From Marsupella aquatica (Eukaryota; Plantae; Marchantiophyta), in the NCBI GenBank assembly GCA_973895155.1, contig OZ316896.1, forward strand, positions 3,224,001 to 3,288,000: DNA of 64,000 bases, written 5' to 3'. The position numbers were made by a program, and so were the translations under genes. How positions within the stretch are numbered: the first letter of the stretch is position 1; the number at the start of each line of letters is the position of its first letter. Shown here in pieces: positions 1,718 to 50,894 of the stretch. The notes beneath the pieces were generated by a model. The model was not told where the DNA came from, made no database searches, and worked only from the letters and a program-made list of their open reading frames with translations.

Positions 1718-3163
1718 TGTCGGATGCCAAATTAGGTAGTAGTTTTAACTAAAGTTTAAAATGGACTAACTATAGTTAGAAGTAACCCCAATTAGAAGTA
1801 GACATAAGGTTAAAGTAAGTAAACTGATGCACAATGGGTCAAGGAGATTAAGTAGGGATAGTTAGGAAGGTCTTAGTTAAAGTCTAGTTGAATTAGGATA
1901 GGTTAGGAAATCTCAAGAAGTAAAAGTAGAAAGTGACAAATGGTCTACTCTGCAGAATTATAGAAAAGTCTCCAAATAGAGTTAAACCTGGAAATCAAGT
2001 AAGTAGATAGTCTTAGGTTCAAGGGACACACTGGCAAAATTTCAGACAAAACAGAGGGCAAGGCACAATGCTGGAGATTTATGAAACTAGAGCTTTGTTA
2101 TAAGTACACTTAAGACGGGATACCATAGAAGTAGGGGTGAGTTCTGAGTACAAAGCAAGTAGTGCTACGGGAGTTTGTCTAGCAGCCAGGTGTCATCATG
2201 GGATTCCTTCTCATAAGGATACAAAATGCAGGGAAAATCTACGTAGAAGCCAAGGAAGGAGCAGCAACAATCAGGCAAAAATTCAAGGGTGTAATTAAGG
2301 GAAATGAACATCGTTCTATAAGGACAATGTGAATTGACTTGGGAGAAGCGAAGGAACCACAGAAATTGCCTGAAGGTAAGGCATGAATTGAATTGAGCTA
2401 CTGGGAGAAACTCTGTGGTGTTGGAAGGAACTCTTGGGATAAGAAAATCTCATCCCCCGAGCAATCTAGTGGTGGCAAAAGATTCAATTTCGTGCCGCTG
2501 CAATTGAAGCTTGGTTGCTAATGCGGAAATTGTTGGTAATTGCCTGAAGCTTTGTATTGTTGGAGTCCGCTGCTGGGGAACTCACTGCTGAAGAGAGTGG
2601 TGTTGTGCTGCCATTGAACTCGTTATGGCCGGGGTTATGGCTGCTGCGCTATTGAGAAGTCCTGGTCCTACTTCACTAAAGCTTGATGCTGCTAAAGAAA
2701 ATTTGATCCTGCTACTCGTTGCTACTTGAACTTGAAGCTGCTGTCCTGGACTTGCTACTAAATAAGAGAAGCTATGTTGCTTCTATGCTGAGAATTGTGG
2801 ATAGAGCATACTGCTGCGAGCTTCTCAGTAAGCTGCTCCAGTGCTGCTGAGTAGCTATGGAGAAGTAGAGCTTGGGAGCTAGGCTGATAGAAGTCAATGT
2901 TGCGGAGGTGAGCTTGCTGATTTATGAGCTATGGAGTAGCTGCCAAGGAGAGCATGAAGCAGCAGCACTTCATCGCTGCTCGCGACTTGTGAAGGGAGGA
3001 GAAAAAAATTGCATTTTGCGAGTAGTCTTCGCGAAAGGAGGAAAAAGGGGTGGTCTTTGCCAAAACTTACCTGGTAGTTGGCTGTCGGCGGCTGGGCTTG
3101 AACTCGCGACCTGCTGTTTGCTAGGGACTTCATTCGGGATACCAACACTAGTAGAAACCGGGG

Positions 3164-3540
3164 GGTATTTAGACCCCATTAAACGACTATTCAGTACCGT
3201 ATAGGACTTGGAAACGACTGGGAAGGACTCCAGTCCTTTATAGGACTATGAGTCGTATGTTTTGTTACTAAAATCAACTGAGTCCTTTATAGAACTGGTT
3301 TATAAGTCGTTTTATAGACTGGATTTTCAGTCTATTGTAGTCTTTGTGTGGGTAGGTTTGGTGAGTCTTTTTCAGTCTTTTATGGGCTGCGATGGTGAGT
3401 CGTTGGGAACAACTCAAAAGGTTATGGAGGGTAGTCTTTAAATATACTTTGTGGGTTTATAAAACGACTAAAGTAGACACTTTGTGGGGGTTTATAAAAC
3501 GACTAAAGTAGACACTTTGTGGGGTATGTACAAGTCTTTC
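3164..3540. repeat. CACTA left subterminal repeats (GACT/AGTC motifs, ~36-bp tandem duplication)
   Basis: Recurrent AAACGACT, AGTCCTTTATAG and AGTCTTT motifs; duplicated CTTTGTGGG..TTTATAAAACGACTAAAGTAGACA at ~3447-3525. Related AGTCTTT motifs at 19300-19420. Confidence 0.7.
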
Positions 3541-4046
3541 ATGTCAACTGGAAATGAGTGATGAAGACCCCACTATACTACTTGGAATGAACTCACTCTT
3601 GTGCACAAATAACACATTTCATTCATGTTTTATTGTGTACTTGGAATGAACTCACTCTATAAGGTCACCATTCACCATGTTAACATTAGAACCTCACACA
3701 AATTTTCAGAAAGCCATCTTCTATACCATGTACACTAATATGAATTCACAGATTCAAACATCATAGACTACAAAGAAGGTCACAAAGCATTCGTCTATAC
3801 CATACACACTAATATTGAATTGATACAAAACAGATTCAAGTATCATAGACAATCACCATAGAGCCATAGTTTGACATCAATCACTTGTTTCATACATACA
3901 GAATTCAGAAATATCAATGTCACACACAACGGCTCCTTCATCCTCTTTACCAAATGGAAAAATTGGTACAGATATTTCTTGGATTTTTCCAAGGCAATGT
4001 CAAAATGTAACACAATTCACATGATTCTATCTACACTTGTATTCAG

Positions 4047-6787
4047 TCACTGCAGACTAACACACTCTGATGGCCAGAGCACAAGAGATCCTACTGCATC
4101 TGCAATTATTTCTTGAGGTGGATCATCGTCTCTATTCGGAAATGGCAAATTACAATCAGATACAATCACTGTAGTCAACAACACTACTACATGGTCATCC
4201 GGGACCACTTTGCCATGGAATTTAGCATGATCCGGTCGCAAAATGCCTGTACCCACACATACCTGCGAGTCATTCTCCCATGATAGAAGATTATGGACTG
4301 GCTCTGCTGTGGCTATCACCTCCACCTTACCCTGGCTGTTTTTCTTGGCTTTCCTGGGTGGCTTATACATGACATTATTCATACCTTGGTTGCGAGTCAT
4401 GACTTTGGCACGAGTGTTTTGTGCTGGTGATCGAGAATTGGCTACACTCTTCTTCAAAGAATCTGCATCCATATTTGACACTTCCGATTGTGTAGCAGGA
4501 TTTCCCTGCGACATCATCTCAGTATCTGCTAACATTGTACTTGCTTCAATTGAAGCATCTACAATCTTACTTGCATCCAATGTTGCTCCCAAGTTTCGAC
4601 GTCGCTTCACCCTGCTCCCACTTGGTTGAGAGTCTGTCAACTCTGCATCAACTACAATTCAATGCATTGTCCAACATAAGTGAATCACTCATCACATGTG
4701 CGCCATGTACATGTCACCATCCACAAAGTTGTCACTATCTCCTTACCATTATGAACAGCCTTCTTCCCCTTCTTTGCCATTGCCATATCCTCCATGTCTG
4801 CTTCTGCTGATCAATAAACAGACCACAAGATTCAGGTTCAATCTATTAACCACTGAATTGTTTCTCAACAATGGTAGGAGAGGAATTTAAAGCATCAGCT
4901 TACCTGATACCTCCTTGGCTATGGTCACTGAGGCACTGGGCACATCTTTTTCATTGCTCTTTGAATCACCTGATACATCAATCATGATGTCACTTCAGTT
5001 CCCAGTTTATCCAACCAATTCTTACAGAAAAGATTACCTCCAACCGGCTTAAGCTTCACAAAACTCCATGCACTTTTCAAATGTAATGTACTGGATCATA
5101 GCAGGTTACTTGTCTCAGGAACCTTTTTGCCATTCTGCTTACTGATTACAGGGTCCAGGTTCTCTGCCTCCACTCTTCCTACATTCAAACCATTCACTCA
5201 ATTCATGAAAACTTACTTCTAACATTTGAACATAGGACACAATGAACAATGGGCCTCTCTTGTTTCAAAATCCTCATTGCATACCTGTGTCAGATTTGCC
5301 AATTCCCTTTTTTGTTAACAAGGGCACACTTTGTACAATGTTGCCCTCATTGTTTGGTTGGGAACCACCCAATTTTTCAATCACAAGCTTGAAATTAGAT
5401 TCCACTGATGCAAGAAGGTTCGCTACAGATGCCTCCACAATATCCAAACGATCAGCCAATTTACTTTCCACTCGAGGGAGTCCACACTCTAATGACTTCA
5501 ACCGTTCAGACATCTCTGTGAGAGTTGTAACAGTTCCCTGTCATAACACAGTTTACATATCTCAGATAATTGTCCCCAAGAACTGGTTGCTTACTTCCTA
5601 CTACAATTCTTTCTGATGCTCAAGGCCAAATAGTCACAGAACATATAGAATTACAACATAATCACCTGTTTGGAAGTCACACTTGTCACCTCACTCCTTT
5701 GTTTCATGAACTCCTCTCTCACTTCTTGTGCTGATGGTTCTTCACCTGTCAATTTCTTCTGCAGTCCACATCAACATACATATGAATGAAACCAAGTGTT
5801 GATTGTCAATGAAAATGTAATAATGGTAGCAAGATGATAAGTTTGAGGCTTACTATCAGGCATGTCACTGCCTTACCAATTGTTCTTTCACTGGAGCATA
5901 ACTTCCTCTCCCAGCCTGTGAAAGGTGTTTCACTTTGCCTCGAGCATTTGACATCAGTTCACTCTTGCTCTGTCCAGCCTCCGACATGAACCCTTTGATT
6001 AACTGTGTCCATTGATCCAGTTCCAATGATGGGGGTGGTGGCATTCTCCTGTTAGAACCATTGTCTATCCACATCCTTTTCAACCTATGCCTTTCTTGTT
6101 TCAAAATCCTCATTGCATAATCTGATATGCAATCTTCAACTGGGCCCTTACCATCATTACCAACATAGTCCCACCGTTCAAGAATGTCCTTGCAGATAGC
6201 AGCCCAATCAGCTTTGTTCTGACTCCTAAACTCTGTAATGCTCAAATCTAACCAACGCAATACTTCTCCTCTTAGGTCAGAATGCCAACGGTTCTTACCA
6301 TCACATGTGGGAGTTATCCAACCTTCGGAATTCACTTCTACTTTACCAAATTTGTTACTGTCTCCTGCCTTGGTACTCCCTGAAGCGCTACTAGGTGTCC
6401 CTCCACGGCCTGGTGTCCCCCCACGGCCTGGGGTCCCTCCACGGCCTGATCTCCCCCCACGGCCTGGATTGCATTGTCCAAACCTCCCTGGAGTCCCTGC
6501 ACATTTACAGGATCCATTTACAGTCACTTACATTAGGTAAGTATGAATCATAAATCCTGCTGCCAAATATACACTGGACTTCAGAGCAATTCTGCAATGA
6601 CCAAGTTACCTCTCCCTTGGCGCATAGATGGTTCTGGACCACCTGTCCTATTGCTTTGTCTTGATGAATTAGGGCCGTTTCTCCCGCCTGTGAATGATTG
6701 CCGCCTATCTGAACGTGGATGGCCTTTGTTGTTTTCGTGATTGTCCCAATCAGAGTCTGCATACCAACAGGTACATGCCACACTCAT
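4047..6787 (-). CDS. CACTA TnpA/Ptta-like multi-exon DNA-binding protein (exon structure approximate)
   Basis: 5865-6527 has QWTQLIKGFMSEAGQSKSELMSNARGKVKHLSQAGRGSYA (Ptta/En/Spm signature) and GTPGRGG repeats. 4047-4640 has FHGKVVPDDHVVVLL..LPFPN..IADAVGSLVLWP (Tnp1/En/Spm C-terminal domain). Several GT-AG bounded exons lie between. Confidence 0.75.
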
Positions 6788-7408
6788 GGACCTGTAAGAT
6801 AAAATCTTTGCCCTAGCTACACATCAGATAAGTCCATATTGAGCTAAATCTCTACTACCATCACAAAATCACTAGCACAAGGCACTTACTTGTCCAATCA
6901 TCCTCCTCACCTTTCCATTGCCTCTGTACCCGTCTCTACCACGCTCTGGGTGTTCATATTCATCCCATCCATCTTCTGCTCCATCATAGTCATCATCATA
7001 ATTATCAGGCGTCCCTTGCCAATAACTCTAGCTCCTTCTAGGGTATGGATTATGTGATTTCTCTCTAGCTGCCCACCTACCTGGGACTTGATGAGGGCCC
7101 TGTGCATCCTGCACAGGTGCATTTTTCTGTGAGCCCCCTGCATCTGGGTCTCCATCCATATCCAATCTTTCCTCTTCACCCCACTCTCCAAGCCCCATGT
7201 CTGTCTCCATGTCATCACCCTCTTCCCCCATAGCTTCTGCACAGCACCCACAACCAAACAGGGAGAATCAGCACACTAAATTCAAAGTATCAATCAATTT
7301 CATGCATATCCAACTATCCTAAACATCATTCCAGGCAGCAATTCCCGTTCTGTGACTCTGTGCAGGTAGTCATCCTCAACCTCATACTTGCCAATCGCCA
7401 GCTGTTGC

Positions 7409-10400
7409 CTATTGCAAATCATCAACCTCATCATATTCCATTTGCCCAGGTTCATCATATGTCTCTCTCAATGTTAAGGGGATGTAGTCAGTCCCTGCCC
7501 GAGTTGGAAGTACAGTCTCATGACTAGGATGCTCGAATGCAGCATGGTCATCCAAACTGAACTCTACTTTACTTCCATCCATCCGCCTGTTCCGTGCTTG
7601 GCTATGGCATACCACCCTCCAGCCATGTGACTCCTCCACATCTGCAAAGAAAGCCTGTTCAACTTGGCTAGGGAAAACAAAAGGCTCAGACCATTCTGGT
7701 ACTCTGGACCTAAAATTGGCCAACAAGAACCCATCATGATCACGCTTCATGGTGGCCCTTGGTCTCTGCCACTCTGATTTCACCCATGATCCCTTCATCA
7801 ATATCACTGGGACACTTGTGTTACCATAATTCAACACCCAAATGTCGGTCAACTCCCCCACGTAACCCATCTTCATCCACCCCCTCTGTTCTTCAGAGGT
7901 TCTCTGCTCAAACACAGAAATCAAACCACAATCATATGATACACAATGGTCACCCTGCTCATCCCTCACTCGATAATGATTTCCATAAGCTCTCATCCAT
8001 TTGTAGGTCAGAATAGACAATCGTGGTGGCACAGATAGAAGATACAAATCCTTCTCCATATCTGGGTGATGTCTACTATGCTCTCGAATTGTCACCCGAA
8101 TCCACTGCTCGAACTGTGGGAAGGGATCCTGCTGCCCAGAGTGTGCAGCTTTTTGCATATCATATTCCCTGCAATATGAGGTACAGGCATAGTTAGGTCT
8201 AAACAACACATGACAACCTAAGATCACCCTTGGAACAGACAAGAAGCATCACAACAAAGGCAAGTCAATTCAATCACTCACCTCCACCATGGTTGCATAG
8301 GCTCTGTGTTTGCCAGCACATATGAATGAGCCTTGTCTCAAATCGCAACAGGCAGCTGAACAGCACGTCCCACACCTTCAACAACCTCGCCACTCACTCC
8401 ATCATCTTCACCAGATTTCCAAACTCTTGTCATAGCTTCACCAGACCCAGCCATGTACTCTGTTAGGAATCCCAACGTCTCATCCTTAATGTACCCCAAT
8501 GCCATGGAAGCCTCTGGCCTGTAGTATGTTCTCACATGACCTTTCAACAACTTCATGTATCGCTCCATAGGGTACATCCATCTGGTACTGACTGGCCCAT
8601 ACTGCCCTAGCTCTTCTACCACATGGATTAGGAGATGAGTCATAACATCAAAGAAAGCAGGGGGGAAGTATATCTCCAAGTCACAGAGGACATAAGCAGC
8701 ATCCTGCTTCAACTGCTCCAATCCTTGGGGATCCCACACTTTCACACATATACGGCGAAATATATTGCACAGTCGAAGAATGACATTACGGACTGGTTTC
8801 TGCATGAGACCTCTGAGGCATAGGGGCAGAATGTGCTACATCAACACATGGTAGTCATGTGTTTTCATACTGCCAAGTTTATTCTTTGTAATATGCTTCT
8901 TGAAGGCACCAGCATAGCCAGAGGGCACTTTCAGACAGCTCAATCTATACAAGAATGTCTTCCATTCATCCTGTGTGCACACATAGGGAGCTTGGAACTT
9001 GAGAAGTACATTGGGATTGCTTGCATGGGGCTTCAACCAAAGGTGAGGGCGAATCCCCTTCTGTTGCATATCAGCTCGAACTGCTCCTGTATCTTTCTCA
9101 CCCGACAAGAACTTCAGCAAGCTCTCACAAATATTTTTCTCAATGTGCATGACGTCCACATTGTGTTTGCTGGGCTCGAATTCCTGCACTCCACAAAGCA
9201 AAGAATTCAACAACAGAAACACTAATTAACCACATAGGAGGATTGTAACCAACATCAATCCACCATTGCTCCAATCTAAAATTGCAATCATACAGGGGCT
9301 GGAGGCTAAGTACATTACCCTCCAGTACTCCAACTCCAAGTCCATCAAGGTCTGTCTTTTCACACCGTGTTTCACCACTGGATCCTCAGGTTCTCGATCA
9401 GTGGCACTTCTCTTGTCCCAATCAGCCTTCCTGGCTGCCCACCTCAGGACTTGCTCTCTGGTGACCCTCTGTGGTGGGCCACAAAGCTCTGTTTTGTTGT
9501 TGAAGTGTGCAATTTGAGACCGTGTGTGCCTGTAAGGATGATCAATAGGCAGATACCTTCTATGCCCCTGAAATTTCATACTGTGCAGGGCATGCGACCA
9601 CTCACTTGTCACATTTTTCCCACATGGTGTGCACCCCACATAGCCCTTTGTCACTCGTCCAGATATGATGCCATGGCCTGGGTAATCTGCTATATCCAGC
9701 AAACAAATTGCATGCAGTCTAAAGGTGCTGGGTCGAAGAAGCCCCTTCAGAACATCATGGGTTAACACCCCTTCTATCCACAAAGTCTTCCACTCTTCCA
9801 CTGCTGGAGCCAACATGATATCTATGAATTGCTCGGTCACAGAAGCTGGTCCAGGGATTAACAGCACCATCATGACAAAACACCTCTTTGTAGTCATCCA
9901 TGGGGGAAGGTTGTAATTTAGCAGCGTAACCGGCCAACATGAATAACGGTTGTTTTTGTCTCCAAATGGGTTTACTCCATCCAGTGATAGACCAAATCTA
10001 AAGTTCCGCTTCTCTGCAGCAAACTGTGGCCACCTCTCATCAACAAATTTCCAATGGTTGGAATCTCCAATGTGACGCTGCAGGCCATCACTGCTCTTGT
10101 TATCAGGAGTCCATGTCATCAGCTTGGAAATGGCAGGGCATCTAAACAGACGTTGTAGTCTAGGAATGAGAGGAAAATGACGAAGAACCTTGGCAGGGTG
10201 TGTACATTTCCCTACATTCTTGTACCTGTGCTTACCACAATGAGGGCATGTCAATTTATCTGCATGCTCTTTGCGAAAGAGAACACACCCATCAGGGCAT
10301 GCGTCAATAGACACATAGTTCAGCCCAAGGTTAGACATCAATTTCCTAGCCTCGTACATACTTTTTGGAATTGAATTACCATCTGGTAACACATTTCGGC

Positions 10401-11109
10401 GCAGGAAGGTCAACAACTCTGTCACAAATATATTGGGAACATTGTGATTGCCATAGATGTTCAACAACAACACGACAAAACCCAGCTTGGAGTAGTTCGA
10501 CCCCTCGTAGATAGGAATGCAAGCTTCTTTGATGTGTTTTGGGCCCCCAAACACCCACTCCCTCTCTGCTGCACCTTCCCCAATGTCAAAGTCAGGTTCA
10601 GCTTGGCCGTCGCCAATGTGTGGCTGCGGTTCATTGTCCTCTTCTGATTCCACTGTGTCGTAAAAAGCATCAAGGTCTTCAAAAATCTCTTGAACCATTC
10701 TTGGGACATCCATCCCACCGTCCTCAGTGACTGCCTCTCCATCTCCATCTTGGTCATCCACGTTCTCATGTTGGACCCCAGGACCATCCTCTGCACAGTC
10801 TATGTCCTGCTCTACGTAGTCTCTATGCCTAGCTGTATTAGAATCCACAAAGTCAGCTCTCCACTCTTCATCAGAGGAGTCTTCTTCTGCTGGTACATTC
10901 CAAACCCTCCACCGAGGGTGCCTTTCATGCCGCAGCAGGTGAAGGTGCACAGTGTTCAAACTCAACGACTTGAATCCTTGGCACTGTGTGCATGGGCATC
11001 TCATCCTCCTACTCCTACCTTGGGCGGCCCGGGCTTGTTCACGCATCCACAATTTAGAATCATGATGCCTAATCCTAAATGGGTTGTGAAGAGGCAACCT
11101 TGGAGCCAT
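7409..11109 (-). pseudogene. CACTA Tnp2/TnpD transposase (transposase-associated Zn motif, Transposase_21, DUF4218- and DUF4216-like), two nonsense mutations
   Basis: CPCTQC, IDACPDGCVLFR, LRHFPLIPRLQRLF, GLSLDGVNPF, WPVTLLNYNLPPW, DVMHIEKNICE, FPPAFFDVMTHL, RWMYPMERYM, EPFVFPSQVEQAFF. Intron 9318-9184. In-frame TAG at 8836-8838 and TGA at 8338-8340. Confidence 0.93.
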
Positions 11110-11435
11110 CACTATACACACGCACTCAGCACCCTGTCATTTTATTATGCAAGTGAAAAATACACTTCCTGTTAAGGATTTCACCCCCGACTGTACTTGC
11201 CAAAATACGTAACGTTCCAAAAAAACAAAAAAACAAAAAATATAGGTGCCTGAGTCATGTACCTATTCTCAAGTGAATGAGACAAAATTCCTAAATGTTT
11301 GAGGGTGTCAACTCCTCCACTGTCCTCACATGTACTGCCTCTGCACGTACATCCATGACCATATCAGAGTCCAATCATGTATAGTCATAGACACAGGTGC
11401 CAGGTGCGAGACCGGTGTGAGATGTCCTCATCTTA

Positions 11436-11969
11436 CTACCACATCAAATACGGATACCAATCCTGTTGTCGATGCCACTCAGCCCTGAGGTACTCAGGCA
11501 TGTACATTAAGTCATCAAGGTCTAAACCCTGCTCATGCCATGGTGGTCTTCGATCCGTGCCTACAAGCAGTGGCAGTAGTGCCCTCCATGGTGCACATGT
11601 TGCTACCAAGTCCCTCCACTGGGTACTAATTAGTCTATATTTGCAGATATCTTGTGCGCCAGACACCACAAGAACCCTCGGCCAGACATGTGTAAGAACT
11701 ATATCATCCGCCAAATCAGGCAACAAGGAACCACCTACAGCATCGTGCTTGTCTAACTCATCTGCTGAAAAGTAAATGTCCTCTTCCGACTGTGCATCCT
11801 CATTCACCACAGCATTCACAACACATCCAAGGTCTGCAGGCATTATCTCGGATGGAGCTACACTCTGTCTGGTTACCAATCCACACAAGTAAGCCCAAGC
11901 AGTAGCCATGCACGATGCAACCCGTAGGAGGACCCTACATAGGGCCTGACGGTCTGGAAGAGGCAGCAT
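11436..11969 (-). CDS. F-box-like protein without a recognisable substrate-binding domain (CACTA cargo)
   Basis: LLPDLADDIVLTHVWPRV..DICKYRLISTQWRDLV fits the plant F-box pattern LLPGLPDD..L..L.RV......R.VS..WR.L. Intact and intronless; first ATG at 11969. Confidence 0.65.
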   Translation of the reverse strand: MLPLPDRQALCRVLLRVASCMATAWAYLCGLVTRQSVAPSEIMPADLGCVVNAVVNEDAQSEEDIYFSADELDKHDAVGGSLLPDLADDIVLTHVWPRVLVVSGAQDICKYRLISTQWRDLVATCAPWRALLPLLVGTDRRPPWHEQGLDLDDLMYMPEYLRAEWHRQQDWYPYLMW

Positions 11970-12145
11970 ACCCACCAAAGTCTTCAGCCAAACAGAGCCC
12001 AGCAAGTAGATTCACAGTCACACCCCACGCAGCAGGAAACAACAATCACTTCAACTGCGACCAACCATGACAAGATGAGTTAGTTCAAGGATCACATTTA
12101 TTACAAAATTGTGATTTATACAAAAATATGAGGGACTCCTACTCC

Positions 12146-12994
12146 TCACTCTCTCCCACCTTTGCTAAGCATACATCTCCGCTGAATCTTGGAGGGCCAG
12201 GCCTCAAAAATATCAAAGTCCCAAGCATTCTGTCGCTTCCCTCTAGCTGCTGATTCCAGAAGCCAATCAGGGGAAAGCACCCAAAGATTGTTGTTCATGA
12301 CAAAATCACGCACTGTTGTCTTAAAGAATTTTCTGCATATTTTCATGTATGACAGACCTACAACATGAGTGGAGGTTTCTGTTAGACTCTCCTCCACTGT
12401 CCCACCTAGCTCAACAACTATAGACTTGTACAATCTGCACTTAGTCTCCCCAATTCCTTCTTCTGCAAATACCACACTGAACCCCTTCATAATGGTATTT
12501 CTCTCCTTGCCATGCTCATTCAATATAGCATCTGCACGCATAGGATGGTGTCCTATGTTGACAACAGGTCCATATTGGACAGAAGCAAAGTTGGGTTTCT
12601 CTGCCGCTGCTTCATAGGCTTCCTTTTCAGCCAAAGCCTCTGCAGTGGCCTCCTCACTCTCCCACAACTCATATTGCTCAGTACTCTGTACACACCTATG
12701 TTTAACAGAATCGGTCAGCCAAGAGACTTCAACTACTTTTAGACCTTGGTTGGTAATGGCAGAATCAATGAAGGACCATGACCACTTGTTCATCACATCC
12801 AGCCATGTCCCCGCAACAACATGTGTAGTCTGTGGAGTGATGTCCTTGACTTCAGTCCCATGGAACTTTGAGAATCGTTTTTGTACGATTGACCAACTCA
12901 CTTGGGTGAACCCATAGTGGCCAGGAATCAAAATGGCTTTGATTCCAGCCAACAGAGGCGGGTGGTCAACCTTTGTACGTTTCCTAGAGGCCAT
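12146..12994 (-). CDS. Tandem BRCT-domain protein (CACTA cargo), 282 aa
   Basis: Two BRCT repeats: FHGTEVKDITPQTTHVV..VVEVSWLTDSVKH..EQYEL and LGGTVEESLTETSTHVV..VLSPDWLLESAARGKRQN. Basic N-terminus SRKRTK. Intact, with AATAAA about 50 nt past the stop. Confidence 0.85.
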   Translation of the reverse strand: MASRKRTKVDHPPLLAGIKAILIPGHYGFTQVSWSIVQKRFSKFHGTEVKDITPQTTHVVAGTWLDVMNKWSWSFIDSAITNQGLKVVEVSWLTDSVKHRCVQSTEQYELWESEEATAEALAEKEAYEAAAEKPNFASVQYGPVVNIGHHPMRADAILNEHGKERNTIMKGFSVVFAEEGIGETKCRLYKSIVVELGGTVEESLTETSTHVVGLSYMKICRKFFKTTVRDFVMNNNLWVLSPDWLLESAARGKRQNAWDFDIFEAWPSKIQRRCMLSKGGRE

Positions 12995-13592
12995 GTACAC
13001 ACGGGCCACCTAATCACTGCAGACCGGAAGATAATGCGTTCACCTGATAATCGGAGGGCCCTTAAAATGCTGCGTTTATAACTTGGTCCAGTCCAGTCGT
13101 CTGGTGAGTCTTTGCTCCGATTCCAAACGGGAGAAATATTGGGACAAACGTACTAGACACCTGCAAGCATGCACCTCATAGTTTGAATATGTGCCTTCAC
13201 AATATTGAAGGTGACAAGTGCAATTGTTTTGTGATGCCACATACAGATGTTATAAATGGGCAGACATTCAATGAGAATACAAAATGTTGGTACACTTTAA
13301 GGGAATTCTCGCAAATTAAATAGCCTTGTAACTTATATGCTCATAATGAGAAGTCCTGATTTAATTTAAGCAGTGTCATGTAAGTCGTGATCAAAATGAT
13401 TGCAGAGTTAAAAAAGTTCCTAGAAGGCTTAAGGGGAGTTTTTGAAGGCATGTACCCAGGAACAAGTAATGAACTTAGGGTACTTGTTGCCTAAGCATCC
13501 TCTCCTACAGAGGTCCTTCTTCTCAAAATTGGAATGTCTGCAATCTCCAAGGTATCCACATCAGGTGCACTATGCATGTACATTATTCAGGT

Positions 13593-14262
13593 TCAAAGCC
13601 AAGAAATGTGATCTCTCATGGGAGTGTGCAAAGTAGGATCTATGGCATGGCGATGACAATAGAAGATCCATCGATCAACACCATGTGCAGAGTGATCATA
13701 GATGTGTCTGTCACAAGCATAGCCTTCTGCTTGACGCTCCTTCAAACAATGAAAGTGCCACATGGTGGGACACCTAACACAGTGGACTATGTCCACCCAG
13801 AAATCTTCATCGTGCTGACCACATGCCTTGCACTTATGAAGTGGGCAAGCTGTGGCAAGATCGGGCAAACATGAAAAACAAAAGAACCTCACACAATATC
13901 TGTCAGGGCATTTCCTAACAAGTGGTGGAGCATCAACAGAGCCCTCATAAGACCCCAACTTCCCACACTGTGCACACTTAGCCTGCTTCTCCAAACAATC
14001 AGTGCACATCCAGCCTCCCTGGTGTGCCCACCCCTGGACAGTTGTTTTCTGCAGCAAGGTCAGACTCCGGGTTGAGGTGGAAATGCCTCATGCAAGGGCC
14101 CTCACATATGGCTAAGCCACCACCATCGTCACAAATGGCACAACAATGAGCTGCCTTCTGGAAAATCTGACTTGCGGAGAAGTTACTACCATCTGGCCCA
14201 ACTACACCTGTGTTGCTCACCTCTGTCCCCCGCTTCTTGGCTCGGATTTTAGGGCGTGCCAT
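13593..14262 (-). CDS. EDM2-like composite PHD-finger protein (CACTA cargo), one frameshift near 14010-14030
   Basis: CAICDDGGGLAICEGPCMRHFH..WMCTDCLEKQAKCAQCGKLGS..CPLHKCKACG..CVRCPTMWHFHCL..IFYCHRHAIDPTLHTPMRDHISW. This parallels the plant EDM2 PHD region as I recall it (CAICDNGG..CEG.CLRSFH..CPLHKC..CRRCPKSYHRKCL..LIYC..HEID..L.TP.RDH). Confidence 0.82.
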
Positions 14263-14931
14263 GCCTACGCATGAGACAGATAGTACAATTTAGCAGAGTG
14301 CACAGACAATACAATTTAGTGCAGTGTACAAAAAGTACAGTGTAGCATATAGACTAGAGTGGCAATTGCTACTGCAATGAAATGTTCACACACATGTGCA
14401 GAGTAGACATACTTTTTGGTTTGTTGAGCCCACACTAAAAACTGATCCCCTCGTACAATAGCTCCACCTACACCTCAATTTTGTGGCTATGATTCACCAA
14501 AGGAGATCTGCAACAAGATTTAATGCATTTGAATCACATATAACAGTCGTGACATGTAAAACAGGCATTTTTTGAATAGGATTGGTATCAAGCACTGTGA
14601 TCAGGGTTGTAATTTATACATCCTAAATAGGCTATGATAGTGAATGAGACAAATAAGTTAGGCATAAATCACTTTTTCCAGGTTATCACATGGCCCATTA
14701 ATTCCAGTCTTTGAAAGAAGACTTTTAAGTGAGCTTGCTAGCCTCTTAAATTAGGATATTGTACTTAGTGCAGCCATAATAGGATAAGTTATGTACTGTT
14801 GACCCTAAACCCTGGACCCAAAATTGGTCATAATTCAAAATCTTAAGTAAATATCCTCTCTGTTCAAGTCAAAGTGTTAAGTTATAGGTCAATGGTCTCT
14901 GGTTTGTGCATGCGGTGTGACAAGTGGTCCT

Positions 14932-15381
14932 CTAGAGCGTGTGATCCAAACATGTGTAGACACCAAAGTGACCGGTGGTGGGGTCTGGGAGGGCAGGACA
15001 AGTGACATCGCCAGGCACACTGCAGGATGGCGAGTGGTTCCAGATGATACATTGTGCTCTGTGAAAAAACCGACATCCAAGAGAACGGTCATCCAACTCT
15101 AGGCCAGAAGCCCTACAGGCAGGACAGTCATATTGGCAACTGTGCACACACCCTTGGGCCCTAATTTGTGGCGGGTCATGTACTAGAGACAGAAATACCA
15201 AGGATGTTGGGAAGGGTGGAGAAGCAGGTACAGGCCGGCTGTAGTTGTTCCTGGCAACAACTGGGTACTCAAAGTACCATGCAGACTGGGCTGGAAGGAT
15301 CCCAAGTCTGACATACTCAAGGCGCAACATCTCTGCCTTGCGTGCAAGCCGCACATGTTCAGCGTTGCGGGTCCTCACCAT
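14932..15381 (-). CDS. Hypothetical Cys/His-rich protein (CACTA cargo)
   Basis: ATG-initiated 149-aa ORF, co-oriented with the other cargo. Contains CVHSCQYDCPAC, CRFFHRAQC and a basic N-terminus MVRTR. No family recognised. Confidence 0.45.
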   Translation of the reverse strand: MVRTRNAEHVRLARKAEMLRLEYVRLGILPAQSAWYFEYPVVARNNYSRPVPASPPFPTSLVFLSLVHDPPQIRAQGCVHSCQYDCPACRASGLELDDRSLGCRFFHRAQCIIWNHSPSCSVPGDVTCPALPDPTTGHFGVYTCLDHTL

Positions 15382-17744
15382 AAGTGTTGCTTTTGTGGAG
15401 ATGTCGTGTGTTCACGTCCTCTGATAAGCACCTTCGATCAGCAAGGTGAGCAGGAGCTGTACTTGCCTCACCAACAACAACCAAACCTTAAATTATCAGT
15501 TCCCACTCACTGTGTCATTCCATTGGTTCCAGCTAGGGGTCACAGTGTAAACATAGCATGAAACACTCCTAATCAACTTGCTTACAAACTACAATATCCA
15601 GAAAGAGTGAAAGTCTCACCCTCCAGTGAGCAACAGAGAGGTAGTTCAGTAGATGTGTTGATGTGCAGTTAAACCTCCACTATTGCTTACTTCTGGTGTA
15701 TGCTGCTCAGAAGAAGACATATTAGTAGCAGCAAATTGCAAATAATGGCCATAAGCAAACCGTGAGAGTTTGCAGAATGCTACGACAAATCCATCACAAC
15801 AGTGCTCCACAGGAATGAAACCAAGCAAAATTTGGTGACCTCGGCCAATGACAAGGCCAATGTAGTGAACAATCCTTGACCGATCAGGATATGGATTGGA
15901 ATTACAATTAGTCAGCTCTTCTTCTTTGTTTTCTAACTCTGGGGGAAATGAGCATGACCAGGGAATTCTCTGAGAAATAGAAGAATCGCTAAGTACAGTA
16001 TTCTTAAGAGTAGTTTTGTTCTAATTCTGAAATCTACACATAGGACATTTATCATGAAAACTGAAGATCCATTTGACAACTCCATGATAGCCTATTCCGC
16101 ATTGTGTCCGCCCCATGCAAGCAAGGGGTATTCATCCGAGCTTAGTCTAACCATGCATGATTGTTCTGGAAGCAGTTGCGACAATGTTTTGGTTTTTTTC
16201 TCCTATCCAACTCAATAGCTCACAAACATGGCATTGGACCCATTAACAAATTATACTTGCCATCATTCTCAACTGTATTACATGGCCCACACTGCTAACA
16301 TCCCTGACTCTTAAGGGAAACTCATCTCCTGGGCCAACAACATCTCAGATTCTACAAAAATGAGAAACTATGAAAACTTCTTGATCTCCTATCCTGTGAT
16401 TGTAGCATGTATGATTTGCTGGGACTGCAGGCAGTTCTGGACCTTGCTGCGCTTTATATACAACAACCTGAGCTCCATGAATTTGTTTTTAATAGACATG
16501 CGTTTGACCACGGCTACAACTCCAAAACAATCACCAAATCAAATCATAACAAAACCCACTCGAAAGCTGAACACTAGAACACTGGGCACTGGGAACACAC
16601 TCAAACAGGTTCTGCAAGGATGGCTCTCTGTCGGATCGACTAGAGAATCAGGCAGGCTTCCTATTATGGTCTGCTCAGAGCCTTCCACTCTGGATTAGAC
16701 TCTGAATCCAAATGCGAGTCTACGCTTTCCGTTGCTGGTCACAACGACGGGCAATCAGGATGATGCCATGCCGAGTAGAAGAACAAGAAAGCATTCCATA
16801 AAAGGCACTGAGATGAACCGTATAGTAAAAGTGGTAGTACTTCCGGTAGCACGACCGACTCGCTATGTGACAGTCCAAAGAAAAGCTAAAAGGCTGAAAG
16901 GTGATAGATTTTGTGCTCAATGTGACAGGTTTTTTGAAATGATCAAGCCAAGGTGCAAAGGAAAACTGATTGAAGGTGACATGGGAAAGTTGTCAATGCA
17001 GGAGAAACTCTTGCCTTAGAGTAACCGTGTAACCAGGTAACAATGCAGGAGAAACTCTTGCCTTAGAGTGCTCGACGCTCCTTCAGCTGGATAGGGGCAG
17101 CTCCAACTACACGGTCTGGTCCAATCACCGCCTGCTTTGTTACAAGAAGGTGGACTAAGCCACAGCTGACGTCAATCACACTGTAAAAAATGGACAGATG
17201 AGCCATGTCACGAAAGCATATATAGTCATTCCTCAATATTAAATGAGACTATGAGAGGGCATATATAAGTTCACGACTAGGAAAGAGTCTCACCTTGTAG
17301 CACGGAGATTCTCAAAGCGCACCAAGATGAGTCATTGTAGCAGGTGAATGTTGGGTGGTGTCATGTAAGGCGCAAATCAATAGCTCGCTACCTCCTGTCT
17401 CCCCGTCTGTCTCCCGTGCACTTCTACCTCCCCGTCCGGCTTCCCGTCTGTCTCCCACGTACTTAAATTGAAGTTTTAACAAAAACTGTCAACACCAAGT
17501 GCAGCAAATGCCAACATATTCACACGGCAGAGCATAAAAGTAGTCACAGTTCATGAATCAGTTCCCTATCGAATCATGGGCACTACGCCGAGCACTGCGC
17601 AAGAGACTAGGATAGACACTGCAAACATGGGGACTTTTGTTTGGCAAGAAATCTGGACATCAAACCTTCAGCAATGGCAACAGGAAGCATTACATCAAAC
17701 GAGAGGACATCAAATGAGCAGTCCGGTTATAGGCAAACGGCGAC

Positions 17745-17807
17745 TGACATAGCGGAGGGAAAAAATGCGCATTGACATAGCGGACATGCGCACATTGACA
17801 TAGCGGA
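17745..17807. repeat. Three direct copies of TGACATAGCGGA
   Basis: Exact 12-mers at 17745, 17773 and 17796, in the CACTA 5' non-coding region. Confidence 0.85.
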
Positions 17808-20800
17808 GGGGAGAAAAACTACAAAGCCAACTAACCTTTTTAAGGCCCACAATTTCAAGGGGAGGGACAAAGAGAGCAAGCACTCCAATCTCTTCAATCC
17901 CTTCTGCAAGTAGCCGCCAAAATCTACTTCTTGGGGTCCAGCCCACGGATGGAGATCATGCAAGGTGGTCAATCACAGTAAGTGCAATCGTTGCAATCCA
18001 CAAACAAGCTGCAAATGAAGACACGCAGGAGGGAAAGTCCGCAACACCAACAACATTACCCTTTGTAAAACCCCGAGCTTATCTTCTAGTTGCCAACGCT
18101 CAAACAAAACCTGCTCGGACACTACCAAAACCCTAATTCCATAAGCTCTCACCTTTGCGACACAACTCCTGCACTATATTCAGCTGGCGTTGGCCCACTC
18201 TAAGCTCCCAAGCTTCACTTTAGTCCGCGCCGCGACTAAAGTTTCACTGCCTCTGTGAGCTTTGCAGTCCACCTTACAGATCGAACAAAGCAATCACCTC
18301 CCTTCACATCCGCACTAATCACCTTTCGCAAAGAGTTGCAATCACCTTCCGCAATACCAGGAAGCTTGCTCCCTCTCGTTCAATGCCTTCTGCAGCATGA
18401 GCGATCACCTCTGCCGAAGCAACTTCAATCGAACACACAGCAACGGGGCGGGCAGCGACAACATTGACAGTGAACGATGGACTCTACTCAAACAACCTCA
18501 AAGCTGTCACAAAAGAACGAGGAAACATTGAGGCAGAAAACAAAGTCCCTAGCGCTAGGCAACCAAAGTATCGGGAAACCAAAGGATCGGGACCAAAGGA
18601 AGGGACGACATGGCATTCCAACAACGGGAAGGGGGAACGGGACGCGGGAACGGGCAATTTTTTGATGGTGGGGATGGATGCCAACGATCCAATGGTCCCT
18701 AAACCCCCATCCCCTTAACATGCAACCCCCGACCCTTCACATCAAACCCCCCCTTAACCCCCTTTAGTGAAAACCCAGCCACCCCCTAGCCTTGACATAT
18801 AAACCCCCTAATGTGCTTAGGACAACTCGACTGTGGCCACACTATGTTTGCAATGCCAGGGTCATCCATTTAGAGCGCCGCTTGCAAGCTTTGGTTCTCA
18901 AGATCCTCCCAAGGCAGCAAACAAGTTAGGGTTCACGGTCCATGTTCCTTTACCCTAAACCGTTGCGTCACTATTTCAATCGAGTGTTCTTCGGCTGGAC
19001 GTGCCCCTTTACTGACCCACACCCCCTTGAGACCGGTACAAATCTACCTTTGTGCATCTCGGCCTTTTATAGATGGATTTAGTAATGGCCAAGAATATGT
19101 TGACCATCCCTCTGTAGTCCACCCTCCATGAACCTCACTTCATTAAACCCAAAATCTTTTTGGTCACAAAATAAGGCCATTTAATGAGTTATGCCCCTTG
19201 CTATCACCCTCTTTATAGAATTACCCCTCCTCAGCATAAGTGGTCATTACCCATGATGTGCTAGACTATTCATCCTTCACAAAGTAGCAAGGTTACTTTT
19301 CATAGTCTTTTAGTGAACCATAAAACACTAATAGTCTTTTGTAGTCTTCAACAAAACCGGTGCAATGGGTATGAGTTGTTTTAAGTATGGAAAAAGGACT
19401 TAGTGGGCTTAGTCCTATAAGGTATGGTCTAAATTGCCCCGGTTTCTACTAGTGCAAGGGAGCGTTCTTAGCTCTTCGTTTAAGAAGTTTGTAGCAACTC
19501 TACTTAACCTTGTGGCAGCATTGGTTCTGAGCCGTTTGAAGGACTTTGAGGCCGGGTCTAGGCCAGCAGGGGGACCAGGGAGACCAGAGGAGGGCCCAGC
19601 AGGGGTGCCTCAACTTCATGGAGGCCCGGGAAACCATTTTTTATCCCAATAGGATATGCTAAGGAGTTTTCATGAAGGCTTGAAAACCACTATTTGTAAT
19701 AAGTTGTCGGGCTATTATGAAGCCCAACACTTGAGGGGTGCTGGTATACGATGAGTTGTTGCTAGATAGCTCAGCCTTGCACTCGCATAGTAGCCATAGA
19801 ATAACTGCTAATGCCAACATTCTAGTTGGAACCAACTCAAGCGACAGTTGTACTATTCAGGTAAGTTTACAACTGTGTAAAAGCTGACCTGTACTTTTGT
19901 GGTAACCCGAGTCTCAGCGGCAAAACCTGTGACTCAGTGGTAACCTGAAACTCAGTGACGTATTAACCCTCAGTTGTAGGTCAAACTTGGAGTTGATACC
20001 GTGAGAAATATTGTGTTCAGTTAGTTTACAACTCGCGCGGTTAGTTGTAAGAGTTACCAAAGGGGGTACCCTGGTTACTCGTCTTGCCGAGAGCTAGGTT
20101 GCCGCTGTTCAGGTCTTGTGTGGAAACCAGAGTACTGGTTGTAGTTAAGTTAACCTGCGGTAAAATAGAGATTTAACCCGAGTTAAACTTTAGCAAGAAA
20201 GTAGTAAGTTTGCCGTAACTACTAACCTGAGTTAGCACCTTAGGCTTGGTTTGGTTTGGCGTGGGTTTGGTTTGGAGCCCTGAGGTGTAGAAATAAAGAG
20301 GAGAAGCAGGGGGCTGTGTTCTCACTTGTTTAGTTGTCCACTTTCTTAGAGGCTGGGAGCTTGGGGGCTGGGCTCTTCCTTGGAGAGCAGCAGCATGAGC
20401 TTGAGGCACTAGGAAGGGGGGAACAGTGAACTAGTCCACTAGGTAGGCAGCAAGGAGAAGGTCAAGGGAGGTGTTGTGATCTGAACTTGTTTCTATTCTC
20501 TCTAGTAAAGACTTGCGTGTAACCCTCAGTCTTGAAGCAGCTGTCTAGTGAGATGTTGAACTAGTGAGCATGTATGTGGACTCAGGTGTGATTTGATATC
20601 GGAGAGATGAAGCTTGAAGCTTGAGATGAGAGCAGGGTCAGCACTTGTCTTGTTGGGATAGCAAGTGGTAATCCTGCAGTCCTTTGTGAAGGAAATAGGG
20701 TACTCTCTTGGGTGACGATTAAGGAGTGCAGGGACAGCTTGTGGGTGTCCACTGCCCGTGTTGAGATCGGGAGTGGGGTGTTGGGAGTGTTTTCCAGTGG

Positions 20801-21027
20801 GAGAGCAGGGGAGTGATAACCACCCTTCAAGGTTATCTTTCCAGCGGTGGAAGTAAAATTACCCAATTGGGTGTGTGAGTGAAGAAGAAGAGAGAGATTA
20901 AGGGAAAGTGACCTACTGTCCTACTATTTGCCCGTCCTAGGAATCCGGACAACGATAAGAAGGGGCAATAGTGGTAGATTTAACTCTAGTGAAGAGTTAA
21001 GCCCCATTGCAAGGTGTTGACACAATG

Positions 21028-21407
21028 GCACTCGCTTGATAGTTCGTGGTTTTGGGCGTCATGTCATAGATGCAGAAATTATCACAAGGAAGAACATCGG
21101 AGATCGTGTTTTTATTCCACGCATTCCTCTTATTGCATCTGACTCAGGGTTACCATTCGATCTTTGACGATTTTAGTTTCCTATCCGTGTTGCCTTTGGT
21201 ATGACCATCAATAAGTCTCAAGGTCAAACCTTGGCAAAGATTGGGATATTTCTACCAAACCCGGTTTTCTCGCATGGTCAATTATATGTGGCATTGTCTA
21301 GGGTTGGTGCTCGGAGTGGCATTCGCATTATGATATCAAGGAATGCATATCCTGATAAGCATGACCTTTACACAAGGAATGTTGTATACCATGAGATTTT
21401 GAGATGA
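21028..21407 (+). pseudogene. Helitron helicase, final exon
   Basis: GTRLIV..RVFIPRIPL..FPIRVAFGMTINKSQGQTL..VFSHGQLYVALSRV..TRNVVYHEIL. In-frame TGA and TAG around 21166-21177. Confidence 0.93.
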
Positions 21408-46050: not shown

Positions 46051-46761
46051 CTAGCCAAAGACATGGACGAATTTCGACAAGATGGTTTCCAAGCCTGCCA
46101 CCTCAGTCTCTGTGATGAAGAACGATTTCGCCAGAAGCTCAGGGTCGACGCCAACCCCAAATAAACCCACGGGCATGAGCTGAATCCCGGGATTCTGACT
46201 GTTCAGCACGTTCAAGCTCACTGCCGGCACCGTGCCCTTGTTGAGCTGGAAGTGCAGAAGACCTCTGGGGAAAATGAATGCCTCCCCCTTCTTGACGATC
46301 TTAGCGAATAGCTTGTTGGGGACTGCAGGGTTGTCGCTATTGGTCACGAAACCCGTATAGATCTCGCCCTCTAGGCAGAAGAGAATCTCGGTGGCCAAGT
46401 TGTGGGTGTGTGGCATGATGATCCCGCCGGGGTTGATGTCCAATCGAGCTAGACCCAATCCCAGTGTATTCAGTGCAGGCCAATCGCGAACAAACCCAAA
46501 CGTTGCGGTACCGTTGACGGGGTTGCCTGAAAGATTGGCAGCTTTGGCCAATCCAGAGAATGCGAAGTCTTCCGTTGTGACAGACTGTGCAGCTTTGCAA
46601 GGGTAGCCATTGGATACAGGGCCTCCTGCTGCCAGATCGGCCACACAAAAATCTTGCAGTGGGTCAGGATCACTTGCTCTGACTCCAATGCAAACGGATG
46701 CCACCGCTAGGATCGTGACGAAGAGTCTTAGGCGGAGCGGGGCTGAAACTGTAAAAGCCAT
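46051..46761 (-). CDS. Germin-like protein (cupin), secreted
   Basis: Signal peptide, SDPDPLQDFCVAD, NGYPCK, germin box PHTHNLATEI, and FIFPRGLLHFQ.N with the H/H/E/H metal ligands intact. ATG at 46761. Confidence 0.96.
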   Translation of the reverse strand: MAFTVSAPLRLRLFVTILAVASVCIGVRASDPDPLQDFCVADLAAGGPVSNGYPCKAAQSVTTEDFAFSGLAKAANLSGNPVNGTATFGFVRDWPALNTLGLGLARLDINPGGIIMPHTHNLATEILFCLEGEIYTGFVTNSDNPAVPNKLFAKIVKKGEAFIFPRGLLHFQLNKGTVPAVSLNVLNSQNPGIQLMPVGLFGVGVDPELLAKSFFITETEVAGLETILSKFVHVFG

Positions 46762-47894
46762 GATTCTGAAACACACAAAGGTTTAATTCCAAGGACGATT
46801 GACCTCTCGGTCCAAGCTAGAGATGGATACAATGCGCGAATACTAAAACTAGATCGTGGGCACTCTGAGTCCGAATGCCACAGCTCATACAGAACTCTCA
46901 GCGCGCGCTGGAAAATGTCAATCCAAGACTTTGTCTATTCTAACTAGCTATATAGACAAATTCTGTCACGAGGGCACACTGATAGATTGTGGTTCTAAAC
47001 ACAAGATTGCAATTGGCTATCTGGTACCTCAGTTGGGAGTGGTTTGTCAGCACTGAAGATCAAACTGGATTGAGAGCAAGATGAACTGAGAGTTGACTTC
47101 AAGCTGGTGCGCTATGAGCGAATGATGATTTGAGTTAGACAAAATGAAGCCTGGTATTTAAAGTCTTTTGTCCAATTCAGTACTCTTCATTACTTCCCTC
47201 AGGCACCGTGCGCAGGGCTATTAAGCGAAACTTCACTGCCCTTGGCTGGTCCAGGTGTACGAGCATCCCTGCCCCAAGACCGACAAAACGCCTGGTACGC
47301 AGATAATGCGGAGCAAACACTCGCAGAACACGTCTATAATGATAAGTCTACCCTCTGAGATCGAACGGCTGTTACGTTTGCTTCATGGAGGTATTGGTCA
47401 CTGCAGGTTCCCGGAAGGGACGAAAGAAATGGACGCTGCTGTCAAGTCGAGAGGGGGCTGCATCGTAGAGGCTTCGTGCTAAAGCAAAGCAAGCTAGAGA
47501 AGTGGACTTCAGTGCCGGAGAAAACTGGAGGTTCCCAGCTGAGGCTCGAGATACCTCATTCCAATGACAGATCACTTGTAGTACGTACAGAACTACTGTA
47601 CATCAATGATCCATCCAACCAAGGTAGAAAGCAGGTCGAGACAATCTTATTACAATATAACTCGATGCGACAGATCCCTTCACTCCAGGAGGTGTATGGG
47701 ATGTGGTCGCTGACTCGCAAAGTACAGTAGACAGGCTACGCATTAAAGAGAGGCTATGCAATAAAGAGAATTCTTGTTAAAGAGCTACAGGTGCTACTGG
47801 TCCATTGTCCATGGGAACCAAAATTCCATTAGAAGCAAGCATGTTTTTTTCTGAAATCGTGGAGTTTAACCCCAGAGTAAGCAATTGAGTGTAA

Positions 47895-50518: not shown

Positions 50519-50894
50519 TGTGATGCCTAGACAGGAATCACTCGGCCAGTTAAGTGGGTAAAGCAGGAAGGCACCCTAGGAACACCTTAGTATAGGGACA
50601 AAACAAGGAAAATATAAACAATTAGGGGCAACCATGGAACCCGGGCCGAGGCCGGAGGTAAGGACACTGAGGGTGAAAACTCGATTAGGGTTAGGGCGCG
50701 TTAAGCGTCGGCGGCTAGGAAGGATCAACGGGAAGAAGGACCGGCAGAGGAGAGGGGTAAGGAGCGCTTGCAGGAGATGGTGGCTCATTTGCGAGCACGA
50801 ACTAGGCAGACGACTACGGGAGGCCAACTACTGTCAGCTGCTTAGGCAAGCACTCGGGGAGAGAGTAGATACCGACGATCGACCTAAGGAGGGT

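Follow-up and report, generated by a model that had tools for sequence, protein, structure and literature searches.

A complete CACTA transposon of the liverwort Marsupella aquatica carries four probably selected accessory genes, including an EDM2-type PHD module

The 64,000-nucleotide stretch of the Marsupella aquatica genome analyzed here (contig OZ316896.1, positions 3,224,001 to 3,288,000; hereafter the window) contains a complete CACTA/EnSpm transposon that carries, besides its transposase genes, a Cys/His-rich protein gene (ORF1), an EDM2-type PHD cluster, a tandem BRCT protein gene and an F-box-like protein gene (Table 1). The four open reading frames (ORFs) of this cargo lie co-oriented on the minus strand, contain no introns, and occupy the interval between the 5′ end of the element and its Tnp2 transposase gene. 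This arrangement had been proposed in an earlier reading made without database searches (the sequence-only reading), and it was confirmed by the terminal inverted repeats (TIRs), the CAA target-site duplication (TSD), an empty insertion site and the ORF map. The 18-bp TIR has 2 exact occurrences in the window, one at each end of the element, compared to a mean of 0.02 in shuffled sequence. The ends were confirmed by the empty-site contig from run X1, which links position 3142 directly to 19455 and skips 16,312 positions, equal to the element plus 3 (one CAA); X1, X2, X3, X5, X7, X9, X10 and X11 are sequencing samples, and their summed contig depths are not copy numbers. TIRs starting with CACTA, a 3-bp TSD and Tnp2 domains in the expected order place the element in the CACTA superfamily. 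The accessory gene set is real, shared at the level of the family, and probably selected.

Table 1 Features of the CACTA element in the window
Feature	Coordinates	Strand	Remarks
Complete CACTA/EnSpm element	3146..19454	-	16,309 bp; every gene on minus strand
TSD CAA, left copy	3143..3145	.	
TSD CAA, right copy	19455..19457	.	
5′ TIR, 18 bp	19437..19454	-	starts CACTA
3′ TIR, 18 bp	3146..3163	+	followed by short subterminal repeats, 3193-3519
5′ internal region	15748..18917	.	without convincing gene; poor match to run X1 contigs
ORF1, Cys/His-rich, 149 aa	14932..15381	-	basic N-terminus; conserved CxHxC-x3-CPxC core
Stand-alone EDM2-type PHD cluster	13593..14262	-	~225 aa when in frame; split 14002-14262 + 13593-14009
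Stand-alone tandem BRCT protein, 282 aa	12146..12994	-	PF00533; basic N-terminus
F-box-like protein, 177 aa	11436..11969	-	acidic FFAT-like motif near residues 65-71, upstream
Tnp2/TnpD transposase	7409..11109	-	Transpos_assoc, Transposase_21, DUF4218, DUF4216, in this order
TnpA-like second gene, probable, multi-exon	4047..7275	-	open stretches; Transposase_24 match on one exon

The PHD reader recognized in the sequence-only reading could be refined to the EDM2 type. The window protein, written with X at its break, showed 30–37% identity to eight known plant host proteins and kept 25 of the 26 Cys/His zinc-ligand columns conserved in them, with a shortened second finger. The split of the gene proved to be an 11-base loss behind position 14025, relative to other copies; the in-frame form accounted for 2740 of 2898 of the depth in run X1 (95%), and two variants of the 11-base segment differed only synonymously, encoding the same residues. 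In Pfam, PHD-1st_NSD scored 27.4 bits, above the cutoff, while PHDvar_NSD and PHD_NSD stayed below it. A search of 1.84 billion representatives with the C-terminal part returned 93 matches, of which the nine best were short (143–245 aa, 36–62% identity) and the rest mostly long. The name EDM2 was attached to six of the 20 match clusters looked up (mango, Aristolochia, Physcomitrium, Triticeae, Miscanthus and Tetraselmis), and none of five short-class clusters had an informative name. Long angiosperm matches carry PF12047, and the window protein has PHD matches only. Judged from its sequence, it is a derived module of EDM2 without the other EDM2 domains, and not a member of the EDM2 family. A tree was built from 40 of 99 rows, most angiosperm rows being omitted; in it, 12 short proteins fell on one side of a branch with support 93/92, just below the starred level; this grouping, which joins top matches to their own query on long branches, is suggestive only. 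The one match confirmed among 187 pattern matches of a metagenome scan with the PHD profile was rejected as an unrelated large ORF resembling a chromatin remodeller.

The tandem BRCT assignment was upheld by PF00533, which matched two stretches of the ORF (E 9e-14) and also two stretches of the homologue P0001. An open, collinear homologue of similar size with 61% identity was found among 774 candidates (1/774), and a metagenome scan with the BRCT profile confirmed none of 222 pattern matches. Within 12348-12549, the linker and second repeat of BRCT differ between the window and a deep run X1 contig, which remains in frame where it is readable; recombination between subfamilies may account for this divergence. 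The basic starts of the ORF1, PHD and BRCT proteins look like nuclear signals, a function that we infer.

The F-box assignment is weak. An F-box family or clan was assigned to all 10 best family-bearing matches of this ORF in the Atlas; in Pfam, PF00646 fell below the cutoff in the window protein (E 0.1) and in all three homologues, the best of which was P0006 (E 0.0011). These homologues, three of 100 candidates, were open, collinear, of similar size and 51–55% identical. The acidic motif of the F-box-like ORF fits the phospho-FFAT pattern (PMC7705450); a loosened version of this pattern was present in all four family members, and when the window protein was shuffled 20,000 times, the strict version combined with an acidic tract arose once. 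Having been noticed post hoc, the motif may serve as a lead. A transmembrane helix considered in the same ORF was unsupported, with a maximum hydropathy of 1.0–1.7 and the segment missing in P0007. The AlphaFold2 model, with a predicted local distance difference test (pLDDT) score of 40.6, was too poor for a fold search, and a viral scan confirmed none of 70 pattern matches.

ORF1 gave no credible Pfam match and no usable Atlas match, and PDB sequence searches were uninformative. Two of 20 candidates were open, collinear homologues of similar size (54–55% identity) that retain the start methionine and the cysteine core. ORF1 probably binds zinc. Its AlphaFold2 model (mean pLDDT 42.9) was likewise too poor for a fold search, none of 52 pattern matches in the viral scan was confirmed, and none of six proteins matched PHROGs.

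The transposase genes follow the basic plant CACTA layout, in which the Tnp2 domains TAD, Transposase_21, DUF4218 and DUF4216 succeed one another (PMC8978399). PF02992 and PF13960 scored above the Pfam cutoff, and PF13963 (E 1.6e-4) and PF13952 (E 1.3e-5) below it. Tnp2 has a predicted 135-nt GT-AG intron at 9184-9318 and two in-frame stops, 8836-8838 and 8338-8340, in agreement with the two nonsense codons counted earlier; a third stop, at 9226-9228, lies inside the predicted intron and was therefore not accepted as nonsense. The stop at 8836-8838 was a sense codon in all four runs compared. The Transposase_24 match of the TnpA-like gene (E 0.009) is below the Pfam cutoff. At 6394-6465, tandem 18-base repeats in an exon of this gene encode a Gly-Arg-rich stretch. 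The ratio of observed to expected CpG was 0.26–0.41 in the element genes versus 0.71 in a host cupin gene of the window, which fits a methylated, decaying copy. The sequence-only reading had drawn weight from uninterrupted BRCT and F-box ORFs beside a broken transposase. Both ORFs are indeed open in the window, but the argument is weak because the copy has simply decayed: most related sequence has neither the PHD frameshift nor one of the two Tnp2 stops.

Cargo sequence was recovered well beyond this copy. Part of 9200-15600 was present in 11 of the 13 listed runs, representing seven organism codes, and four runs contained half of it or more; the run with the largest share may come from the source of the window itself. 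Runs X3, X2 and X5 (2145, 4888 and 221 contigs, respectively; three organism codes) covered all 30 bins of 11000-16000, and X7 covered 26. In run X1, summed depth reached 2662–6732 in cargo bins and 1937–2612 in Tnp2 bins, compared to 160–378 in the flanks; it was lower in the flanks and in 15748-18917 than in the cargo, and this 5′ internal region is probably variable among copies. Long X1 contigs matched deeply and closely (for example, 8 differences over 1644 bases at depth 1912), and the family in this run therefore appears homogeneous and recently amplified. The ORF1 and PHD bins (13212-15747) had about twice the summed depth of the Tnp2 bins in X1; a second subfamily, or a derivative carrying only these genes, is a possible source of the excess. 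In X7, five of the six bins with depth >200 lay in PHD or F-box coding sequence. The spacer between BRCT and F-box (12002-12168) was also deeply matched in X7, and the adjoining bins were not; it may contain a conserved regulatory element. Cargo matches from X9, X10 and X11 were not counted, as these short pieces of depth 2–12 could be contamination; deep matches in these runs were confined to Tnp2 and one 3′ bin.

Selection was evaluated by simulating neutral change 2000 times for each pair, with identity matched, and scoring Trp+Cys retention and substitution quality; the absence of stops in homologues was not used as evidence, a test biased by databases that contain nothing but open ORFs. 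Trp+Cys retention in the PHD C-terminal part was reached by 1, 0, 6 and 0 of 2000 neutral runs in four pairs, BRCT substitution quality by 1 of 2000, and F-box substitution quality by 3, 24 and 4 of 2000 in three pairs. The sequences of PHD, BRCT and F-box are thus conserved above the neutral model, and that of ORF1 weakly so. Among the listed variants of close copies, codon changes were synonymous in 12 cases and non-synonymous in 15, where a synonymous share of 0.25 would be expected (p = 0.02). We consider it likely that the cargo consists of selected accessory genes. A simple one-off capture is unlikely, and the cargo appears to be a family-level trait, because it occurs in contigs of other samples, has open homologues and shows constraint beyond the neutral model. 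The alternative already envisaged in the sequence-only reading, a neutral capture limited to one copy and close to host genes, found nothing in its favor in comparisons that covered contigs of other samples, known plant proteins and neutral simulations, and the distance of the PHD protein from the eight plant proteins also argues against it.

A broader version of this alternative is that host pieces were captured once by a founder element and then amplified, in which case the constraint would stem from their past as host genes, or the DNA would camouflage the element from silencing. Captured genes are described as most often ending in pseudogenization, and a camouflage role has been proposed (PMC13317346); frameshifting gaps in some F-box copies agree with such passive cargo, and the comparison covered known plant proteins and the sequences of the homologues themselves. 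We regard this explanation as unlikely in view of the four co-oriented, intronless ORFs with matching start methionines in most homologues, the separation of the 12 short PHD proteins from named host proteins, the synonymous excess among close copies, and the X7 deep matches, which lie mostly in coding cores and not in spacers. Selection could also be limited to PHD and BRCT, with ORF1 and the F-box-like ORF dispensable or cycling in and out and no coherent cassette. The marginal constraint on ORF1, F-box gaps in three runs, and X7 deep matches that fall in PHD and F-box and in neither BRCT nor ORF1 point in this direction, whereas the conservative F-box substitutions in three of three pairs and the start and cysteine core kept in the ORF1 homologues make it, in our view, very improbable.

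If the accessory genes are selected, counter-silencing is slightly favored as the main role of the PHD protein. EDM2 binds H3K9me2, affects silencing of transposable elements, and recruits ASI1 and AIPP1, leading to full-length transcripts through intronic heterochromatin (PMC7529245; PMC3632883). Arabidopsis Spm copies activated by TnpA retain H3K9me (bioRxiv 10.64898/2026.08.24.746577), which would give an element reason to carry an H3K9me2-type reader. Together, these two observations suggest that the silenced copies of the element would be the most likely site of action for an EDM2 derivative reduced to its reader. We therefore tentatively favor, at slightly short of even chances, a CACTA family with four stand-alone accessory genes of old host origin that would be kept for the benefit of the element, the PHD protein countering silencing of its own copies. 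In this model, the cargo genes would be expressed together with the transposase, and the PHD protein, free of the other EDM2 domains, would dock on H3K9me2-type chromatin of the silenced copies, where it would either shield the mark from host readers or aid read-through transcription with the TnpA-like protein. The BRCT protein could be an adaptor at excision or insertion breaks, and the F-box-like protein could eliminate a host factor by recruiting SKP1, perhaps at the endoplasmic reticulum (ER) via its acidic FFAT-like motif. The sequence-only reading had proposed functions aimed at silencing, DNA repair and SKP1–cullin–F-box (SCF) ubiquitination; such host manipulation we infer from domain identity as the sole basis. 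A more elaborate scheme, in which an EDM2 reader, a BRCT repair adaptor, an ER-tethered P0-like F-box and a new zinc-binding protein would form a virus-like counter-defense cassette kept across diverged CACTA families, seems doubtful to us.

The main rival to this model accepts that the cargo is selected and has the PHD protein, perhaps with BRCT, guide the transposase toward repair sites or a given type of chromatin, which would set insertion preference instead of undoing silencing. The conservation data apply equally to this targeting role, a reader lacking an effector suits tethering, and chromodomain-guided retrotransposon insertion offers a parallel. The window copy itself is inserted in another repeat, between helicase remnants; a single insertion site is, however, uninformative on bias, the PHD reader is not fused to Tnp2, and an F-box would be unnecessary for targeting. 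We give this explanation a minority chance, rather on the low side.

Several observations weigh against the counter-silencing model and against an intact, selected set. The acidic residues that precede the first PHD cysteine in longer host EDM2-like proteins are missing from the window protein, and its histone specificity may therefore differ from that of EDM2. EDM2-like proteins that are short and consist of PHD only were also met in Marchantia (P0042, 280 aa), Triticeae (P0028 cluster, ~250–340 aa, many records) and Miscanthus (P0053, 287 aa), so that short length alone is no mark of a transposon gene; these proteins do not join the short group to which the window protein belongs, and some of them may be transposon-borne. 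The phosphate pocket of the BRCA1 type, which we take to consist of Ser/Thr-Gly plus Lys in repeat 1, was not clearly matched in the BRCT protein, where Tyr and Ser aligned at pocket positions in a weak alignment (E 0.025). Among the contigs listed, none bridges two cargo ORFs, and the gene order in other copies is deduced from continuous cover. Broken copies occur as well: PHD contains a stop in one X7 loose end, and gaps interrupt the F-box, of 43 bases in one X2 contig and in the sole X5 contig listed for that place, and of a net 122 bases in one X1 contig. Constraint on ORF1 was weak (Trp+Cys retention reached by 84 and 65, and substitution quality by 121 and 1150, of 2000 neutral runs), the PHD N-terminal part was mostly non-significant (one of eight tests passed), and F-box Trp+Cys retention was non-significant. 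The variant test rests on 40 of 426 places, 30 of them in ORFs. The distant homologues may be host genes.

The element is flanked on both sides by remnants, at 1031-1495 and 20901-21401, that their motifs mark as being of a PIF1/Helitron-type helicase; the 1031-1495 remnant has no Pfam match, and the flanks are also repeated in run X1. Farther away, the window contains an intact germin-like cupin gene at 46051-46782 (-) (Cupin_1, E 4e-34) and, at 50580-53151 (+), long GC-rich ORFs (401, 346 and 158 aa) that have coiled-coil character, match no Pfam family above the cutoff and may belong to a retroelement.

The known plant transposon anti-silencing factors, VANC and TnpA, recognize DNA sequence. 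A stripped histone reader taken from the host pathway of heterochromatin read-through and combined with repair and ubiquitin adaptors would, if our model is correct, represent a different anti-silencing route, and would make DNA transposons harder to set apart from viruses that carry accessory genes. Support for anti-silencing has been described in one survey as confined to context-specific cases (PMC12973397). As the family in X1 appears homogeneous and largely intact, each cargo gene is directly testable. The sequence-only reading knew of no such combination in a CACTA, and this agrees with our searches: in literature on CACTA cargo, EDM2, BRCT and anti-silencing, with Repbase outside the search, no title or abstract described this cargo, and recent work on transposable element products and gene capture, searched by term, gave no mention of PHD, BRCT or F-box. 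Transposons with repurposed host genes are already known; the four-gene set of EDM2-type PHD, BRCT, F-box-like and Cys/His proteins in a CACTA element is what appears to be new.

Comparison with known systems places the element as follows. CACTA/EnSpm Jozin types 2–4 with Peptidase_C48 share its Tnp2 domain order, its extra sequence upstream of TAD and probably its Transposase_24-like second gene (PMC8978399); in those elements the additions amount to a protease domain or to short pieces of genes, such as 80 bp of AP2, in contrast to four separate full ORFs with constrained homologues. Pack-CACTA elements likewise hold host-derived sequence between CACTA ends (PMC13317346), whereas the window element encodes its own Tnp2 and carries cargo that has diverged widely from known host genes. 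VANC/KIU of VANDAL Mutators are accessory genes of a DNA transposon for which descent from a chromatin protein of the host has been proposed, MAIN-like in the case of VANC; VANC belongs to another superfamily, reads DNA motifs and has demonstrated anti-silencing activity (PMC13317346; PMC13547354), as opposed to four genes known from sequence, one of the histone-reader type. Fungal DNA transposons, including EnSpm, carry TET/JBP dioxygenases, and thus also pair CACTA-type elements with an epigenetic accessory gene proposed for silencing escape (PMC12730594); that gene encodes an enzyme and its hosts are fungi, unlike the putative non-enzymatic interaction modules of the plant element. The polerovirus silencing suppressor P0, which targets ER-associated AGO1, is a small F-box-like protein in a genetic parasite (PMC6842623; PMC6593998), and its likeness to the window ORF would be one of analogy. 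Finally, Arabidopsis EDM2 shares with the window protein a homologous atypical PHD repeat, the zinc-ligand positions and a C-terminal tail motif (PMC3632883; PMC7529245); most of its long relatives span 1200–1600 aa compared to ~225 aa here, and the window protein is devoid of the DNMT1-RFD and C-terminal domains (ELP-type regions).

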